Shown here in pieces: positions 16,172-34,596 of a stretch of 64,000 nt of DNA. Made by a program: the position numbers and the translations under genes. Every line of letters begins with the position of its first letter. Within the stretch, counting starts at the first letter, position 1. The notes beneath the pieces were generated by a model. The model did not search any database. It was not told the origin of the DNA and worked only from the letters and a program-made list of their open reading frames with translations. Origin of the DNA: Moorena producens (GTDB lineage Bacteria > Cyanobacteriota > Cyanobacteriia > Cyanobacteriales > Coleofasciculaceae). The DNA lies in assembly GCF_965240435.1 (NCBI RefSeq), contig NZ_CBDEKO010000003.1. One strand, 5' to 3'.

Positions 16172-17506
16172 TCAAAACTTCTTTGATAAACAACCTATGC
16201 CACACCCAACCTCAGCAAAACTTGGTGCAGGAAATGAAGCAAACCCTTTTCTGTCGTCTATATTGTCATCTTTTTCTGAAACAATTGAAAACTGATCATG
16301 GTTTTTGAAGGGATGAGGAAGTGCAAGTGCCGCTTGACAGTATTGGTCAAATTCGGCTAAAAGTGGAGAATTTTCTAGCTTCTGTAGCTCAGTCTGAAAA
16401 TTCCCTTTGGCAAATCGCCAAAACTCACTGTCAAAGGCGGATCCCATCCCGTAGTGCCAGCCCACAAATATAGCAGTTTTTAGCACACCGTTCAGTAAGC
16501 TGGCATTAAAGCGCCTCAAATTATTTTCATTCAGTCTTGACTTCTTTCTACCCTGCAACACATACGATACCAGCAACTTACGAAGTGGCCAGCGTGAAAA
16601 ACTTTTCATGTAAGACAAGATCCAGACAATTGCTGTAGCTTCTAGAGGTTCTAAAAATAAGGCAGCATTGCCGATGCGGAAAACAGCACCATCAAAAAAT
16701 GTCCGACAGGCGAAATTGGGAAATGTGAGCTGGCGCTCCGTAGGAGTACAGTGGACTCCTTCGCCATTAAGGAACTGATCAAAATCGGCTCTAACCTCAC
16801 TGATACTGCTAATGTTATGGTTATAGATATAACCGTAAGACGTGCGGGTGGTCAGGGGGATTGTGAAAATCCAACCGTGGGGTCGAGCGATCGCCCGGGT
16901 TGCCGATTGGTATTGGAAGCTACACTGGTCAATTGTAAGGTCAATCTTACCATCCTCAATGGCTGGCCCTCGACGGATTAGTGCAGCATTGGTGGGAATC
17001 AAGTTTAGTTCAATATGTTCAGGACCCAAGGATTTAGGTAAGCCACGAGCATCAATGGCGAAATCAACCTCCAAATTGGTGTCATCCCCAAACTTGATAT
17101 TGGCAACTACACCATCACTTTCAATCTCAACAACCTTCTTCTGAATATGAGTTGCTGAAACATAGTCTGCTAGCAATTCCACTAATTTATCAGCAGAAAT
17201 ATGGTAAGCATAATCGCTCCGGATTGGATAGAAGTGATGAAAGAATTGCTGATACTGGGTTCCCCAATTTTCAAATTTAATCCCAAATTTGCGAGTTAGA
17301 AAACACCGCTGAGCTAACTCAGCATCCTTGAGATTGGTAATGTCTTGGAGCCAATACCGAAAAAATGGTGTTGTTCCCTCCCCTACACCAATGGTAGGAA
17401 TGTTTGGATCAAAGATGTGATACAGCTCGAAAGCTGGAAAATATTTGGTCAAATGGGCAGCAGCGATAAAACCAGCTGTGCCACCACCAATGATTGCAAT
17501 TTTCAT
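16172..17506 (-). CDS. Flavin-dependent halogenase-like FAD oxidoreductase (tryptophan halogenase family)
   Basis: 444 aa. N-terminal GxGxxG (IIGGGTAGFIAA). IGVGEGTTP segment as in the Trp-halogenase Lys region. GWIFTIPL resembles the WxWxIP signature, with F in place of the second W. Confidence 0.55.
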   Translation of the reverse strand: MKIAIIGGGTAGFIAAAHLTKYFPAFELYHIFDPNIPTIGVGEGTTPFFRYWLQDITNLKDAELAQRCFLTRKFGIKFENWGTQYQQFFHHFYPIRSDYAYHISADKLVELLADYVSATHIQKKVVEIESDGVVANIKFGDDTNLEVDFAIDARGLPKSLGPEHIELNLIPTNAALIRRGPAIEDGKIDLTIDQCSFQYQSATRAIARPHGWIFTIPLTTRTSYGYIYNHNISSISEVRADFDQFLNGEGVHCTPTERQLTFPNFACRTFFDGAVFRIGNAALFLEPLEATAIVWILSYMKSFSRWPLRKLLVSYVLQGRKKSRLNENNLRRFNASLLNGVLKTAIFVGWHYGMGSAFDSEFWRFAKGNFQTELQKLENSPLLAEFDQYCQAALALPHPFKNHDQFSIVSEKDDNIDDRKGFASFPAPSFAEVGCGIGCLSKKF

Positions 17507-26240: not shown

Positions 26241-29200
26241 CTATTGCCACAATAACACTGAGGGCAGCTTACCAGAAGCTAAACGCAACAGCTCGTAACC
26301 AATCCCTGCTGTTCCCTGAAAGAAGCCAGGACTCCAGACAGAACTTGGCAAATTGTCAAACAGTTGATAACTTCCTGTTCGTCTTGCCCTCGCCACCACA
26401 TTTGTTCCTCGTTGGAGGGCGAGTTGCCGTAAATCAGGACGGGAAAATCCTTCGGCTGCAATCAACAGAACCTCAATCCGTCCGAAGTTACCGCAGCACA
26501 AATGGTCAATGCCTTGTAAGCCAAATTGCTGGGTCTTTTGCAACCCTACCTCAATGTCCTGCTGAATATCTGCCGTATCCAGCATGGGCAATCCACCCAG
26601 TCGTCCTAGGGCAATCCCCGGTGCTCCATGACACCAACTCACCATAAAGCCCGGTTGCCCCTTGTCCTGCTGGAATTCGCGGAAATCCGGCCAATTACCT
26701 GCCTTCTCAGAAAAAACACTGCGTTCGTAGGCAATACCTTCTTCTGCTGCTTCACGGTAACGATGGTCTTGGGTGACAGCATACAGGCGCAGCAAAGCAT
26801 AGGCAATTCCAGCCGCACCGTGGGAGAACCCCGTGAGGGGCTGTTCCCTGAGAGTTTGCCATGCCTTGGGAGACCCCTTGATACTCACGCGCTGCTGTAA
26901 TAGATGGTTAGCACAAGCTTGAGCTTTCTCTAGAACGTCTGGATCCTGAGTAGCTTCGTACAAGGGTAACAGACCCAAGATTGCTCCGGCAGCTCCTCCC
27001 ATCACATCCAGTTGTTGATCAGTCGCAATCAATTCAGCAGTAATACTCTTGACAAAAAGCTCAGCATCCGCAAGTAATGCTGTATCCCCCAAGAATTGGC
27101 TGACTTTTGTGAAAGTATAGATGATAGAACTAACTCCGGTAGCTCCTCCAATTCCCAAATTTCTCGCCAGTCTCTGACGAGTATCAGCCAGCTGAGTTAG
27201 CTTTCGTAAACGCTGTAAAGCTTGCAAAGCTAATTCACCAAATTCTTGACGACCCCTTACCCAATCCAATGCTGATAGAAACAGGGCAATTCCACATTTG
27301 CCATCGTAGAGGGAGTTGCCCAGCAGCTGTAGTTGAAACCGTTCAGCTTTAGAAACAAACCCCATGCCAATCCAGTTAACACAGCCATTTGGATCTGGAA
27401 TTGCTTTGGCCTGGATTTCCCTAGCGATCGCATCAGCCTCTTGAATCAACTGATCCGGTGTCAGCGGTGGTAGGGACTGTACTTCCCATGCCCCGGTTTC
27501 TCCAGTTGGTTTTCGTGCCACCCGTGCATAAAGAGCTTGCCGGATCAAACAGAGTTGTTGCCCTAGGTTTGTTTCACTGAATTGCTGTAGCTCGGTGATC
27601 ACCTGCTCATAACTCGGTTGCTTAAAAGCCTGGGGAATAGTTTCTCCGGTAGGTAGGGGTAAAGCCTGACTAGCAGAGTTGCCCTGAAAGTATGGAATAT
27701 CGAGTTGTGCCATTACCTGCAACTCAGCAGCTAAGATCGGCCAAGCTTTTGGTTTCTGCTGATCAACCAGGAACCCTCGACTGATGATGTCTAGCTCAAG
27801 ACTGTAATCAACTCCATCTTGGCAGAATTCAGGGGTCAAGGTTTTCTGCAAAACTGTCCGATACACTTTAGTTGACCGAAAGATAAACCGGATGGGTTGG
27901 TCTTGCAGGGCTGCTAGTGGTCCATCAACAGCAAGCATTGCCTCTCCCTGGCCGATCACGAAGCGATACACCTGCTCAAACCCCTCAACCAGCTGCTCCA
28001 CATAGTCGTTAGGAGACAGGATCTGCTCACCAAGGTAAGACACATTTTTCGACCTGGGTCGAGTGATATTATCGTAGCCCAGATGCATATGATCAGTGTT
28101 GATAGCCTTCCAGCAGCGAGCTTTATGAGCTTTATTAGAGCTAGGTTGGGACTCAATACTTCCCAAACCGCTAATGTCATAGGCAATGCTGCGATCGCTA
28201 CTAAAATCCCATCGGGGCAACAACCCCGTCCGCAAGACAGAATGGTAAAATTGTTGCCCTGCAGTGGATTCCATCTCTTGGGCATCCAGGGAATTGTCTA
28301 TCAGTTTGACTTCCGGGTCAAGGAGAGTTTCTAGATCCACCAACACCAAATGCTCACCACTCGCAATCAGGTTTTGATAGTGGCAGTCTATTCCCCGCAA
28401 AGCATAAAGCCAGCACAATAGCATCCCAGCGCGCTGATAAAACCGTTGCGCCGCTGCTTCATTTTCGCAGGGCTGATGTTCCACATACTCAACCCAGCCA
28501 TACCCACTTTGATTGAGAACTCGTAATACTTTGAATTTGAGCAGTTCTTCGTGTTGATTGCACCAAGCCAACAGGTTATTAAACGCTACTTCCAGCCCTA
28601 AATCTTTGGGTTTGTAGACTACCTTGAGTCCAGAATCAAAGGTGAGTACAAACACTGAGCGTCCTCCATTGTGGGGGTCCGATAACCCTGTCTTAATATC
28701 AGTGACCTGACCGAGACCTTTCAATGATGTTGTTCCTTGCTCCCCTTCAGGGGTTTGGGTTTTACCAAACATTTGATCAATGGCTTCATAGTCCCAGCTC
28801 AACCGTTGCAGTAACTCTACCGTTGCCTCTAGCCAAAGGTTGATACAGGTAGCAACCAATCGCCCCAGCACCGGATAGTTTTCGACAAGGGTAAGGTAAC
28901 CTTCTCGCAAGTGTTGCTCGACAAAGGCATCATAGAAAGTCGTTTGACCATTGCCCTGGAGAGCTGGTAGAAGTAAGTTCAGCAATCTATATCCACCTGG
29001 ACGGGCTTTGGAGAACTCAGCATTCAGTGTCTTAGCACAAAGCGTTGTTACTTGTTGCAGCAGAGTGCGCTCTAGACAACGGTAGGCTGTTTTAGATAAC
29101 AAAGCATTGGCTTGACCTACCACTGGCAAGGCAAAATCCTTGAACCTTTCCTGTAGCTTTGCTCTGGCCACCACCACCACAGGTAGCAGTAGATCTTCAA

Positions 29201-29546
29201 AGGGAAGAGGATTGTCTAGATCAATTGGCAAGTCAGGATAATCCTGAGGCTGAAAGCCTTTAGCGGTTTCCATTACCTGTGCTAGGGTGTTTGCCCACTT
29301 GGGTAGTTGTTCAGCAACTAAACGCACAGTACCTAGGCATGGACGAACTTTGTCTATATCTAATCCATCCCACTGTAAGCGTCGCTGAAACTTGTCCCAG
29401 TTTCCCTGAGCCACCACATTGCACCAGCGCTCAAGTCTTTGTGATACTTGTGCTTCACTGTTGCTATTAAGCTCCGGTACGAATTGCTTGATATCAAGGC
29501 GTTCCCACCAGAAACTAGCTTTAGCAACTATTGATCTACCTAACAA
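26241..29546 (-). CDS. lanM: Class II lanthipeptide synthetase LanM (ProcM-like, CCG zinc-ligand type)
   Basis: 1101 aa. N-terminal LanM dehydratase domain. C-terminal LanC-like cyclase with WCHGAPGIALGRL and HLCCGNFGRIE (CCG rather than CHG, as in ProcM). Confidence 0.85.
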   Translation of the reverse strand: MLGRSIVAKASFWWERLDIKQFVPELNSNSEAQVSQRLERWCNVVAQGNWDKFQRRLQWDGLDIDKVRPCLGTVRLVAEQLPKWANTLAQVMETAKGFQPQDYPDLPIDLDNPLPFEDLLLPVVVVARAKLQERFKDFALPVVGQANALLSKTAYRCLERTLLQQVTTLCAKTLNAEFSKARPGGYRLLNLLLPALQGNGQTTFYDAFVEQHLREGYLTLVENYPVLGRLVATCINLWLEATVELLQRLSWDYEAIDQMFGKTQTPEGEQGTTSLKGLGQVTDIKTGLSDPHNGGRSVFVLTFDSGLKVVYKPKDLGLEVAFNNLLAWCNQHEELLKFKVLRVLNQSGYGWVEYVEHQPCENEAAAQRFYQRAGMLLCWLYALRGIDCHYQNLIASGEHLVLVDLETLLDPEVKLIDNSLDAQEMESTAGQQFYHSVLRTGLLPRWDFSSDRSIAYDISGLGSIESQPSSNKAHKARCWKAINTDHMHLGYDNITRPRSKNVSYLGEQILSPNDYVEQLVEGFEQVYRFVIGQGEAMLAVDGPLAALQDQPIRFIFRSTKVYRTVLQKTLTPEFCQDGVDYSLELDIISRGFLVDQQKPKAWPILAAELQVMAQLDIPYFQGNSASQALPLPTGETIPQAFKQPSYEQVITELQQFSETNLGQQLCLIRQALYARVARKPTGETGAWEVQSLPPLTPDQLIQEADAIAREIQAKAIPDPNGCVNWIGMGFVSKAERFQLQLLGNSLYDGKCGIALFLSALDWVRGRQEFGELALQALQRLRKLTQLADTRQRLARNLGIGGATGVSSIIYTFTKVSQFLGDTALLADAELFVKSITAELIATDQQLDVMGGAAGAILGLLPLYEATQDPDVLEKAQACANHLLQQRVSIKGSPKAWQTLREQPLTGFSHGAAGIAYALLRLYAVTQDHRYREAAEEGIAYERSVFSEKAGNWPDFREFQQDKGQPGFMVSWCHGAPGIALGRLGGLPMLDTADIQQDIEVGLQKTQQFGLQGIDHLCCGNFGRIEVLLIAAEGFSRPDLRQLALQRGTNVVARARRTGSYQLFDNLPSSVWSPGFFQGTAGIGYELLRLASGKLPSVLLWQ

Positions 29547-30409: not shown

Positions 30410-32879
30410 AGCATGCCCCTTATTTGTTTAATCTTAACTAGTAATAATCCTGATTATACTCTAAAAAAAAATATTAGTATTTTTATCAGTTTGGTTAATC
30501 ATTAATGGTTAATAGTTGTTAGTACTTAATGCTATCAAGCCTAATATAAAGTGGCCTCATGCCTAATCGTTAATGTTCCAATCAGCAATCACATCTCTTA
30601 CCCCAGGGGTTTGATGAAGTTGCTACCAACTCAATCAAACAAACGTACTCATAACGAGTTTGGGTTATTTTGGCAGAGCAGAAAAAGAAAGGTTAGGTTA
30701 GTTTTATAGCGACTTCCTTTGCTGTCAGGTTACAAAATAGTTGATTGTTGATTAGGCTTTAGGGATAAACCATGAACTATAGCAATCCGACATAAATCGT
30801 GAGACTTCCTGATCCGAAGCTCCCTTGGTAAAACAATTTTGCTCACAACTGACTTGGGATTTCTATAGGCACAACACTGTATATAAATACCTGAACATAA
30901 ATGCTGTTAACTGTGTTGAAACCCTTAACGTTGCTCAACCCATTGATGGTCTTAGTTTGCCATTACCTATGCCTTTATCCTATCAGTCAACTTTAATTGT
31001 GTCTGACGACTTACTACCTATGAAGGCAACTTAGTAATCTATTTTGATTAGACCCAAACTATGACTACAACTGAGCGTAAAACAGAGAAGAAAATGGAAG
31101 TGCCTAGGACAACTAGTGAAGTTATTCGCATCAAGCCCCAACAGTTTATTCATGTTCTAGACAACAACACTGGTGTTACCCGACTGGAGGTTGGTCCTCA
31201 AACCATTACCCTTCGCGATCACGAGCGGCTGATATTAAAACCTGAACCGATGATTATTGTGCCGCCTCGATATTATTGTGTGGTTGCTAATCCATTACTC
31301 CGGGATGAAGACGGTCAACCCATTGCTGATCAGCATGGTCAAATTCGACTGCGCTACGGTGATCTGGAAATTCGTTTTGCGCAAGATCCCTTTCCCCTTT
31401 ATCCAAACGAGAAACTAGTAGGGGATGTCACGCAACTGGCAGTAGTCGAGACCAATCAAGCACTGCGTCTGAGAGCAATTCGGGATTTTACCGATACGGT
31501 TACGAGAATAGTTGATGGAGAAACCCAGACTGAAACAATTAACCGTTTAGCAGGTGATGAATGGCTGTTTGAAGGACCTGGAACTTATATTCCCCGGGTG
31601 GAGGTTGAAGTAGTTGAGACAGTGACAGCTGAGGTGATTAAACCTAACCAAGCCTTACACCTGTTAGCACGGCAAAATTGCACCGATCGTCAAAGGAATA
31701 GACGTAGAGCAGGTGAAGAATGGCTGGTTAGAGAAGAAGGAGCCTATTTACCTGGTGTAGATGAAGAAGTAATTGGCATTATTAATGCTTACATTTTGAC
31801 AGAACAAAAAGCATTACATCTGAAAGCTAAACGCACCTTTACTGATATTTTTGGTCGTCAGCGTAAAGCTGGAGATGAATGGTTGGTCACCTTTGAAGAT
31901 GCAGAAATTCATATTCCCGATGTTTATGAAGATGTAGTGGGAGAAGTTACGATTACTACCCTCAGCGATCACGAATGGTGTATTGTGCTTGACCCGATTG
32001 ATGAATCTGGTAAACCTCAGCTCGGTATGCGAGAAGTGCGCCAGGGTAGAACATCATTTTTCTTGCATCCTGGTGAGTCCTTAGAGAATGGTATCCAAAA
32101 CATCTATGTTCTCAGTGAGCTAGAAGCACTGTTGCTTCGAGCCAAAGAAGCTTTTAATGAGGGGGAAGGTGACCAGGTCATTACTCATCAACCAGGGGAT
32201 TTGTGGATGATTGCTGGGCCACAAGATTATATTCCCCCTGTGGAAGTGGAAGTGGTTGAGAAGCGTCAAGCCATTCCCCTCGATAAGAATGAAGGTATCT
32301 ATGTGCGTAACATTCAGACTGGTGAACTCAAACTGGTCGGTGGTCCTCAGGCTTATATGCTCACTCCCTATGAGAAGCTTTGGGAAAAAGAACTGCCATC
32401 GGTAGTTGAGGAACTGTTGATGCAAAAAATAGACCCATTGTCTGGGCGTGGTCAGCATTCTCTAGCTGGGGGCGATCAGTCGGAGCGAAAATCAGGAGTG
32501 CGCCAAGGTCTATACCAACGGGATAAGACTAGAGCAGTTGTGTTTCATATTCCTCAAAATGCTGCTGTGCAGCTCCATGATTATAAAAACAGAACTGCAA
32601 GAACTGTATTTGGACCGGACTTGGTGATGCTCGAACCAGATGAAGCCTTTACTGTGCTTTCTTTGTCAGGTAGCAAGCCCAAACGACCTAATGTCATCAA
32701 ATCCTTAGCCTTATTACTCGGTCCTGATTTTATGACCGATATCTTTACCGTAGAGACAGCAGACCATACCAGATTGCAGCTACAACTGTCCTATAACTGG
32801 TACTTTGATGTGGACAGACACGATGAACAGACTGCAGCCAGACTGTTTCAAGTACCTGATTTTGTGGGAGATACTTTTG

Positions 32880-33399
32880 ACACTCCCCGGCCTGAAGGCG
32901 CGGGGATTCCTAGATCAACGAGCCGCCTTAAACCGTCGAGTTCCCATCTATGACGCCGCCAAAAATGGGACAATACTTAACCGAGAATCCGTCAATACCA
33001 AATTCCTAGTTAATTCACGACAGACCCAGAGGGCAGTTCTCCTTAGGCGTTTAACTACTTATTGGAAGTGCCTTATTAAGTCCGTTTCCCTTCCTTTCGT
33101 TTGGTTTCGGTGTGCCCCACCGTACCGTTTTCTCGTCCATAGTGATTCTTCTGGGTTCACACACCAACTGTTAATTGATGATTGGGTTTTTAAAGAGGAC
33201 TTTCCCTTCCCTCTAGACATTACTACTTTAAGGTCGATAAGTTACGGGTCTCTCTCCCGGCTCAGCCTACGGTTTTTCAGCCTGTATGTATCTTGATTAT
33301 ACGATAAATATTCGTGTGTGTCCATAGTTGCTCTTTTTTTTATAGGTTCCTAATAGAAAGCCGTCCTATAAGGACGGGGCTTTAAACCCAAATCTTTTG
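32880..33399 (+). mobile_element. 520-bp non-coding insertion in MVP gene, flanked by CTTTTG direct repeats
   Basis: No coding potential in the MVP frame. Hairpin near the 5' end (CCCCGG..CGCGGGG) and near the 3' end (CCGTCCTATAAGGACGG). The 6-bp direct repeat CTTTTG occurs at 32874-32879 and 33394-33399. Removal restores the frame (520 mod 3 = 1). Confidence 0.45.
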
Positions 33400-33837
33400 G
33401 TAAAGCGATCGCATCCCGAGTGCGGGGTGCTGTAGCAGGGGAAAAATTTGATGAATTTCACCGCAATTCAGCCCGGATTATCCGACTGGCGGTGTTTGGC
33501 ACTGATCAAGAAGGTCATATTCGAGATGAATTTCGTTTCCGAGCCAATAACCTAGTAATTACCAATATTGACATTCAGTCAGTGGAGCCAGTGGATGAAG
33601 AAACCTTAAGGAGCTTGCAAAAGTCAGTGCAGCTAGCGATTCAAATTACCACTGATGCTCAAGAAGCTGCTGCACGCCAAGATGCAGAACGGATTGAGCA
33701 AGAAGCGAAAGCCAGGTTGGAAAGGCAAGTAATTTTGGATCAAAGTGGAGCAGAAGCAGAACGCAAAAAACTTCTAGAATTACAGGCAGAAAATATAGCC
33801 ATTGAGTCTACAGGTCAAGCAACAGCAGAAGCAAGAG

Positions 33838-34101
33838 GTGACATACTCCCACATTGAATCGAAGATTACAGTGTGGGCTTCTTACCAACTCCACCCAACG
33901 GTTCGGATACTCGGTAAGCTTTATTAACGATACAGGATGCCCCTCCGCACCGGAACAATACAATAAGTTCTATTTTTTAATTAGTAGGTGGCGGTTAGCT
34001 CTTATTTGGTTTTCCCTACTATATCTAGTATAAACGATTTTTATCCTGTCCGCAATTCATCTGACACTCATGCTGCGCATGTTCGTTGTGAGGCATAAGA
34101 G
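33838..34101 (+). mobile_element. 264-bp non-coding insertion in MVP gene, flanked by AAGAG direct repeats
   Basis: Direct repeat AAGAG at 33833-33837 and 34097-34101. Hairpins CCCACA..TGTGGG near the 5' end and CATGC-TGC-GCATG near the 3' end. Removal restores the MVP frame (264 is divisible by 3). Confidence 0.45.
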
Positions 34102-34596
34102 CGGATGAAGCTAAGGCTGAAGCGGCTCAGATTCAAGGACAATTAGCAGTTAACTTGGCTCAGCAAGAAGCCGAGGCGGCTCGGATTCGCAATCAAATCG
34201 AGTTAGCTCAACTCAAAGCACGTCAGGAAGCTGAATTAGCCCATCAACAAGCCTTTAATAACCTAGAGATTGCCAAAGCTGAGCGTATGGCTCACATTAA
34301 GAGTGAAGAATACCGACAGAAAGTAGAAGCAATTGGTCCTCAAACCATTCAAGCGATCGCACAAGCAGGTCCGGAAATGCAGGCAAGACTTCTAGAAGCA
34401 CTTGGTATCCAGAGTGTTTTGATTACCGATGGCAAAAATCCCATCAATCTATTTGGTGCAGCTAATGGTCTGATTACTCCCCCAACTTCTAACTAAGTGC
34501 ATCTGTGTCTGCTGCGCGCTGTGTCTGCTGCGTGCTGGCACGGCTTCCCTTATACACAGATACACCGATAACCCAACCCTATCTTACCGGTCTATC

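Follow-up and report, generated by a model that had tools for sequence, protein, structure and literature searches.

The second of the two interruptions in the MVP gene is very probably a 273-bp gene-less miniature (PATE/MITE) of a cyanobacterial IS200/IS605 TnpB element, which sits within the gene in minus-strand orientation, immediately 3' of a TTAG motif. PATEs are palindrome-associated transposable elements, with examples in Haloquadratum, Geobacillus and Clostridioides. The element keeps a left-end hairpin, a piece of the tnpB leader, the last 19 codons of tnpB and a structured right end, which in full-length relatives overlaps the tnpB 3' end. On this reading, the GT...AG interruptions that look like introns in a bacterial gene with a eukaryotic flavour are routine IS200/IS605 miniature insertions, and recognising this keeps them from being annotated as introns or taken for a new class of element. 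What is gained is a set of exact boundaries, a TTAG target and a predicted omega-RNA scaffold model for a cyanobacterial TnpB lineage.

The MVP gene and the limits of its two inserts

The window, which is the whole 64-kb stretch of DNA analysed here, contains an MVP homologue that starts at 31061 and whose reading frame is interrupted twice in the ORF list with translations (Table 1). With the inserts removed at the coordinates of the preliminary description, the product aligned end to end with human and rat MVP (phmmer, E ~5e-293). The bacterial protein (31061–34496 minus both inserts) shares ~57% identity with human/rat MVP across ~860 residues, and such high identity to a eukaryotic protein is noteworthy in itself. 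Its relatives number more than 2,500, are found mostly in filamentous cyanobacteria and usually bear the annotation 'colicin uptake protein'. The locus is flanked by the r-protein operon, a LanM gene and pentapeptide-repeat genes, HIP1 sites (GCGATCGC, a cyanobacterial repeat) are present in the window, and the nearest protein relatives come from Moorena/Moorea. The LanM-like gene (26241–29546, minus strand) encodes a class II lanthipeptide synthetase of 1101 aa whose ortholog has DUF4135 and LANC_like, and a tryptophan-halogenase-family gene (16172–17506, minus strand) also lies upstream of MVP; these two genes beside MVP may mark a natural-product locus.

A syntenic contig (L001) carries LanM, a pentapeptide-repeat gene, MVP, a small ORF, a Na+/H+ exchanger and rplC/rplD, and its MVP is uninterrupted, with 879 aa and 97% identity to the window MVP. 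The closest MVP orthologs are 97% and 96% identical, and neither has an insert at the second site. In a nucleotide alignment to the empty site of L001 (GCAGAAGCAAG|AGCTAAGGCT; on the minus strand TTAG|CTCTTGCTTCTG), the window has exactly 273 extra bases, running from 33836/33838 to 34108/34110 with a placement ambiguity of only two bases, AG. Seven other Moorena copies start with CT (TCATCCGC) directly after TTAG and finish with ...GAGTATGTCAC. The empty site and the ends of these copies together fix the insert at 33838–34110.

The preliminary description had reported a non-coding interruption of the MVP frame that starts at 33838, which is correct. Deleting the 264 bp that it proposed (33838–34101) does close the frame, with the sequence AG|GTGACA...CATAAGAG|CG as claimed, but the real insert ends at 34110. 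The shorter excision leaves nine insert bases (CGGATGAAG) in MVP and thus three extra residues, ADE, which are absent from human MVP and from all 53 homologues with a matchable junction motif. Flanking AAGAG repeats had also been described; the right-hand AAGAG (34097–34101) lies within the left end of the element (CCGCTCTTATGCC; the same in copies L017 and L100), so the pair is not a target-site duplication, and comparison with the L001 empty site shows no such duplication at this insert. An apparent CTTTTG 'duplication' was ruled out by the empty-site and family alignments. A repeat finder returned neither terminal inverted repeats nor meaningful direct repeats. We also rejected a classical TIR-type MITE (IS630/IS5/Tc1-like), given the lack of a duplication relative to the empty site, ends that are not inverted repeats, and an AAGAG that is internal.

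The limits of the first insert against L001 involve neither placement ambiguity nor duplication, and its length is 523 bp (32877–33399) rather than the 520 bp first given. Excising 520 bp yields ...GDTFGKAIAS, where homologues read GD(A/T/S)CKAIAS in 65 of 65 matched cases. In element orientation this insert reads TTAC|CAAAAG...GGGGAGTGTCAA|. The preliminary description had suggested comparing the two inserts with each other: by self-BLAST they share no similarity and are not copies of one another, nor does either have a second copy elsewhere in the 64-kb window.

With 523 and 273 bp taken out, the reconstructed MVP coding sequence has 2640 nt and 879 codons and is colinear with that of L001 without any indel. 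The two coding sequences differ by 54.5 synonymous and 20.5 non-synonymous changes (dS 0.095, dN/dS 0.107), and the gene was under purifying selection until very recently. Because the reconstructed gene is colinear with its ortholog and under purifying selection, both insertions are recent. Read into the 273-bp insert, the MVP frame meets a stop after seven codons, which truncates the translation, and the 523-bp insert also truncates MVP, to a 630-aa ORF. The strain should lack full-length MVP unless the inserts are excised, its vault-protein gene being freshly, and potentially reversibly, inactivated.

Table 1. Features of the interrupted MVP gene and of its two inserts, in window coordinates.
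Feature	Coordinates	Strand	Basis
MVP coding sequence, first segment	31061..32876	+	ORF list; colinear with uninterrupted ortholog L001; phmmer to human/rat MVP
MVP coding sequence, middle segment	33400..33837	+	alignment to L001
MVP coding sequence, last segment, including stop codon	34111..34496	+	alignment to L001
First insert, 523 bp, non-autonomous IS200/IS605 element, IS608-like subfamily	32877..33399	-	empty sites L001, L003
TTAC target motif (TAM), abuts left end of first insert	33400..33403	-	sequence check, family comparison
273-bp non-autonomous IS200/IS605 (TnpB-type) element, PATE/MITE (very probable)	33838..34110	-	empty site; seven full copies
TTAG target motif (TAM), abuts left end of 273-bp element	34111..34114	-	family comparison
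Left end: 18 nt, imperfect hairpin, then ATGAAT	34045..34110	-	family alignment
-10-like TATACT (34027–34032) and start of retained tnpB 5' leader (TAGTAGG...)	34015..34032	-	homologous segment
tnpB 3' end remnant: last 19 codons NKAYRVSEPLGGVGKKPTL and stop codon	33866..33925	-	tblastn
Right end and predicted omega-RNA scaffold, three helices	33838..33965	-	covariance model R1, covariation
Predicted 20-nt omega-RNA guide portion (CTCTTGCTTCTGCTGTTGCT): DNA flanking the right end, antisense to MVP	33818..33837	-	sequence

Relatives among cyanobacterial TnpB elements

A BLASTN comparison with plasmids revealed annotated tnpB (RNA-guided endonuclease) genes, on the opposite strand, whose 3' ends match the low-coordinate end of each insert, and an IS200/IS605 tnpA just past which the DNA matches the high-coordinate end of the 523-bp insert; for that insert the plasmids are cyanobacterial. 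By these matches both inserts are minus-strand elements of IS200/IS605 type. The 273-bp element accordingly has its left end at the high coordinate and its right end at the low coordinate, antisense to MVP. Over its last 45 nt, read in element orientation, it shares 87% identity with the end of a tnpB element from Oscillatoria; the similarity goes no further than ...GTCAC, where both elements stop. Ends related to those of the 523-bp insert occur in seven loci (L041, L052, L048, L070, L030, L005 and L006), with TTAC-like targets and a TCAA finish, and both end hairpins of that insert fold. The 523-bp insert is an independent insertion of another subfamily (TTAC, ...TCAA) in the same orientation as the 273-bp element, whose target is TTAG. 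The earlier view that the two interruptions arose independently is supported. A stretch of L070 (734–769) may be the smallest possible derivative.

A right-end motif scan of one genome per species gave at least 120 loci, all cyanobacterial among the matches listed, with many in Moorena, Okeania, Symploca, Caldora, Nostoc and Scytonema. About 20 loci among the matches listed have an open TnpB frame of 360–467 aa that ends 16–60 nt before the right-end tip, and intact TnpB ORFs of 404–422 aa precede the right end in L038, L012, L061, L080 and L036. The TnpB of L038 (M. bouillonii) has Pfam matches to OrfB_IS605, Cas12f1-like_TNB and HTH_OrfB_IS605 and, by eye, keeps the RuvC motifs IDMG, AHE and DRD. 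All 19 residues of the tnpB remnant in the window copy are identical to the C-terminus of this intact 404-aa protein (tblastn, E 1e-9). At the other end, a segment homologous to the retained leader, TATACTAATAGTAGGTCGAAAAACAGGAG, lies upstream of tnpB in L038, L012, L061 and L080, and the full-length L038 and L080 have the same TTAG and left-end hairpin upstream of tnpB.

Short copies with two ends like those of the insert were found at seven loci in five Moorena genomes, among the matches listed; they are 288–429 bp long and have unrelated flanks. TTAG stands immediately 5' of the element in eight of eight aligned copies and in two full-length elements, with unrelated sequence further upstream. 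Among the matches listed, a left end was recognisable at 30 loci, of which 22 span 281–578 bp and eight span 1368–1722 bp. Over these 30 loci the left-end stem covaries (CTCACA/TGTGAG, CCCACA/TGTGGG, CCCACG/CGTGGG). The exact right-end junction had no match in a metagenome scan. A tblastn search for Y1 tnpA in the window and at the 120 listed loci found only one fragment, in L125, and the mobilising enzyme is for this reason assumed.

Some copies carry further sequence. A divergent ORF of ~53 aa lies between the left end and tnpB in the full-length relatives L012, L061, L038 and L080, in the place expected for tnpA, and has a ribbon-helix-helix/NikA-like match (Pfam E 2e-7). Nested in several Moorena copies of both IS605-type families is a long-palindrome miniature element of ~110 bp (...GTTACCGTAAGA...TCTAAGGTTTCGTCTCC), at ~3645–3785 of L100, in L017, at the left ends of L012 and L061, and in L052; it was not found in the window.

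Known systems provide close parallels. PATEs are gene-less IS200/IS605 TnpB derivatives that often encode omega-RNAs for use in trans (PMC10055086). Like PATEs/MITEs, the window element is gene-less, has at both ends the subterminal hairpins of a TnpB/TnpA element, lies 3' of a short target motif without duplication and retains the omega-RNA region, and like PATEs it would need mobilisation and use in trans. Unlike known PATEs, it comes from a lineage in cyanobacteria (Moorena) whose target is TTAG and whose elements end in ...GAGTATGTCAC, and it keeps a tnpB leader fragment with a -10 box. The preliminary description had raised the prospect of a new mobile-element family; a PATE-type IS200/IS605 TnpB derivative is of a kind already described (PMC10055086). 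Its broader proposal, a small, hairpin-bearing, precisely excisable mobile element, is supported, with excision itself expected from the IS200/IS605 mechanism.

The comparison extends to cleavage geometry. IS608 of Helicobacter pylori is the mechanistic type element. Its TnpA cuts at two sites, one 3' of TTAC and 19 nt upstream of the left hairpin, the other after TCAA and 10 nt downstream of the right one; single-stranded circles are inserted without duplication and excision is scarless (PMC3201880). As in IS608, a target tetranucleotide precedes the left end of the window element and its right end finishes in a cleavage tetranucleotide, and its hairpin-to-cleavage spacings are 18 nt (left) and 10 nt (right) against 19 and 10. 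The 523-bp insert uses the same TTAC target and ...TCAA end as IS608. Unlike IS608, which is autonomous with tnpA and tnpB, the 273-bp element is gene-less and uses TTAG and TCAC.

End hairpins and the predicted omega-RNA

The two ends of the element form similar subterminal imperfect hairpins, with a left stem CTCACA/TGT(C/G)AG and a right stem CCCACA/TGTGGG. In the window copy the left stem pairs CTCACA (34087–34092) with TGTCAG (34061–34066), leaving one C-C mismatch that is also present in L017 and L079, and the right hairpin has one C-A mismatch. Folded in isolation, the right hairpin of this copy has a z of -2.1, and the left end folds no better than shuffled sequence. The mismatches and the weak left-end folding suggest that the window copy may no longer be mobile. 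The last 10 nt of the element are AGTATGTCAC, of which the final TCAC is the cleavage motif.

The 130 nt next to the right end can be aligned across MITEs and full-length elements, and their helices covary. In the window copy the scaffold consists of 33913–33918 paired with 33881–33886, 33900–33902 paired with 33893–33895, and a terminal hairpin at 33848–33877. The long-range helix shows compensatory changes (CTTACC/GGTAAG, CTCAGT/GCTGAG, CTTTCC/GGAAAG, CTTGCC/GGCAAG and others), as does the 3-bp hairpin. Overall, 96% of cells are paired, compared with 34–49% when the partners are slid, and there are 74 double changes; 0 of 500 shuffles gave a score as high as that observed. Double changes occur at four of six pairs in helix 1 and three of three in helix 2; the terminal hairpin was fixed by the search pattern and is not counted as evidence. 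A covariance model (R1) built from 28 loci, with the window sequence excluded, matches 33838–33965 on the minus strand over its full length (136.9 bits, E ~3e-32) and ends exactly at 33838. In TnpB systems the counterpart of this region is the omega-RNA scaffold. TTAG and the adjoining 20 nt, CTCTTGCTTCTGCTGTTGCT, together make up the empty site of L001, and by the known TnpB mechanism this adjoining MVP sequence would be the guide of the omega-RNA.

The TATACT region might serve as a promoter for the scaffold, a possible but weak candidate; a consensus scan called no canonical promoter in the 273-bp insert, because the -35 at TATACT matches at only three of six positions. An optional insert of ~26 nt (TTCGCG..GCGTGGCCAAAGGCC) adds a GGCC/GGCC hairpin to the omega-RNA region in L117, L079, L096, L017, L121 and L012, and is absent from other copies, including that in the window. 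In the first insert, R1 has a weak match at 33068–33142 on the minus strand (14 bits, E 0.06), and a GCGG.GGGGCA..CCG motif common to both inserts may be a conserved omega-RNA element of both subfamilies. The first insert also contains a near-consensus sigma-70-type promoter sequence, TGGACA-17-TATAAT (11/12, 33296–33324, minus strand), which points in element orientation, antisense into the upstream MVP segment; the short ORF that comes after it looks like a decayed start of tnpB.

Mechanism and alternative explanations

By the established mechanism of the family, the element would have been pasted into MVP as single-stranded DNA by a Y1 TnpA supplied in trans, and the same enzyme could excise it scarlessly and restore the gene. 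Its right end would be transcribed into an omega-RNA whose guide is the adjoining MVP sequence, and with such a guide the TnpB of a full-length relative could cut the vacated TTAG site, forcing the element to be copied back. Meers et al. demonstrated that the donor joint left by excision is cut by TnpB with its omega-RNA (PMC10055086). By analogy, the insertion would be trans-mobilised and potentially reversible, and its RNA could guide TnpB to the site in MVP that excision leaves vacant. The GC skew of the window, looked at for replication direction and the lagging-strand bias of IS200/IS605 elements, follows gene orientation.

The alternative that survives best, possible although we think it unlikely, accepts the same kind of element but takes it for a dead fossil that can be neither excised nor transcribed, and the MVP of this strain for a fresh pseudogene. 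Mismatches in both end hairpins, the weakly folding left end, the lack of a promoter call within the 273 bp and the lack of tnpA at any of the 120 listed loci, one fragment aside, all fit this view, as does the second insertion, which leaves the gene doubly broken. However, the shared C-C mismatch in L017 and L079 may mean that it is tolerated, the predicted omega-RNA helices are intact at 137 bits, and the rest of MVP shows no decay, which makes the insertion young.

A bolder view holds that the short Moorena elements are selected, self-sufficient 'guide-only' genes and that two of them in MVP, in one orientation and with TnpA and TnpB in trans, act as a reversible, drive-protected off-switch for the bacterial vault protein; we regard this as improbable. 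A recurrent deletion does bring the putative omega-RNA scaffold directly up against the left end and the tnpB leader with its -10 box, and short copies are commoner than full-length ones (22 versus 8 among the matches listed).

Far less credible is that the insert is removed at the RNA level and MVP is still made, whether it be a self-splicing IStron-like sequence, a degenerate group I/II intron or a spliceosomal-type intron; degenerate introns were one possibility raised in the preliminary description. IStrons occur in Clostridia and have an intron core of ~300–600 nt. They are IS605/IS607 elements fused to group I introns and do splice out of host genes (10.1101/2023.11.20.567912), and the window element resembles them in being a TnpB-family transposon inside a protein-coding gene with boundaries that permit exact removal. 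Also in favour of such removal are the ends, formally GT...AG, and the length of 273 bp, a multiple of 3. However, IStrons have a group I ribozyme in sense orientation and splice at the RNA level, whereas the 273-bp element is antisense, so that the mRNA would carry the complement of its structured RNA, and it has no detectable ribozyme and lacks the IStron intron core. No group I/II intron model matched either strand even at E up to 10: Rfam 15 at gathering threshold gave no intron, ribozyme or other family across the window, and at E up to 10 gave no intron family on either strand of 32700–34300, only chance snoRNA and lncRNA matches. Orthologs in sister strains, moreover, lack the insert.

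The terminal bases themselves point to the IS200/IS605 element. That GT...AG might be coincidental had been allowed for from the start, and splice signals are not involved: reverse-complementing the family's conserved start (CT...) and end (...GTCAC) gives these very bases. Every family member reads GTGAC...AG on the plus strand, which accounts for the formal match, and the same conserved transposon termini are present at intergenic copies too. The 523-bp companion has no GT...AG ends, as previously noted.

There is a negligible prospect that the insert is a spliceosomal intron which arrived with a eukaryotic MVP gene by horizontal transfer: although MVP is best known from eukaryotes, the protein is ~57% identical to human MVP and the ends read GT...AG, the reading is effectively refuted by the empty sites of the closest orthologs (97% and 96%) and of more than 50 other cyanobacterial homologues, and by the dispersal of the same sequence family elsewhere in Moorena genomes, with unrelated flanks and tnpB genes.
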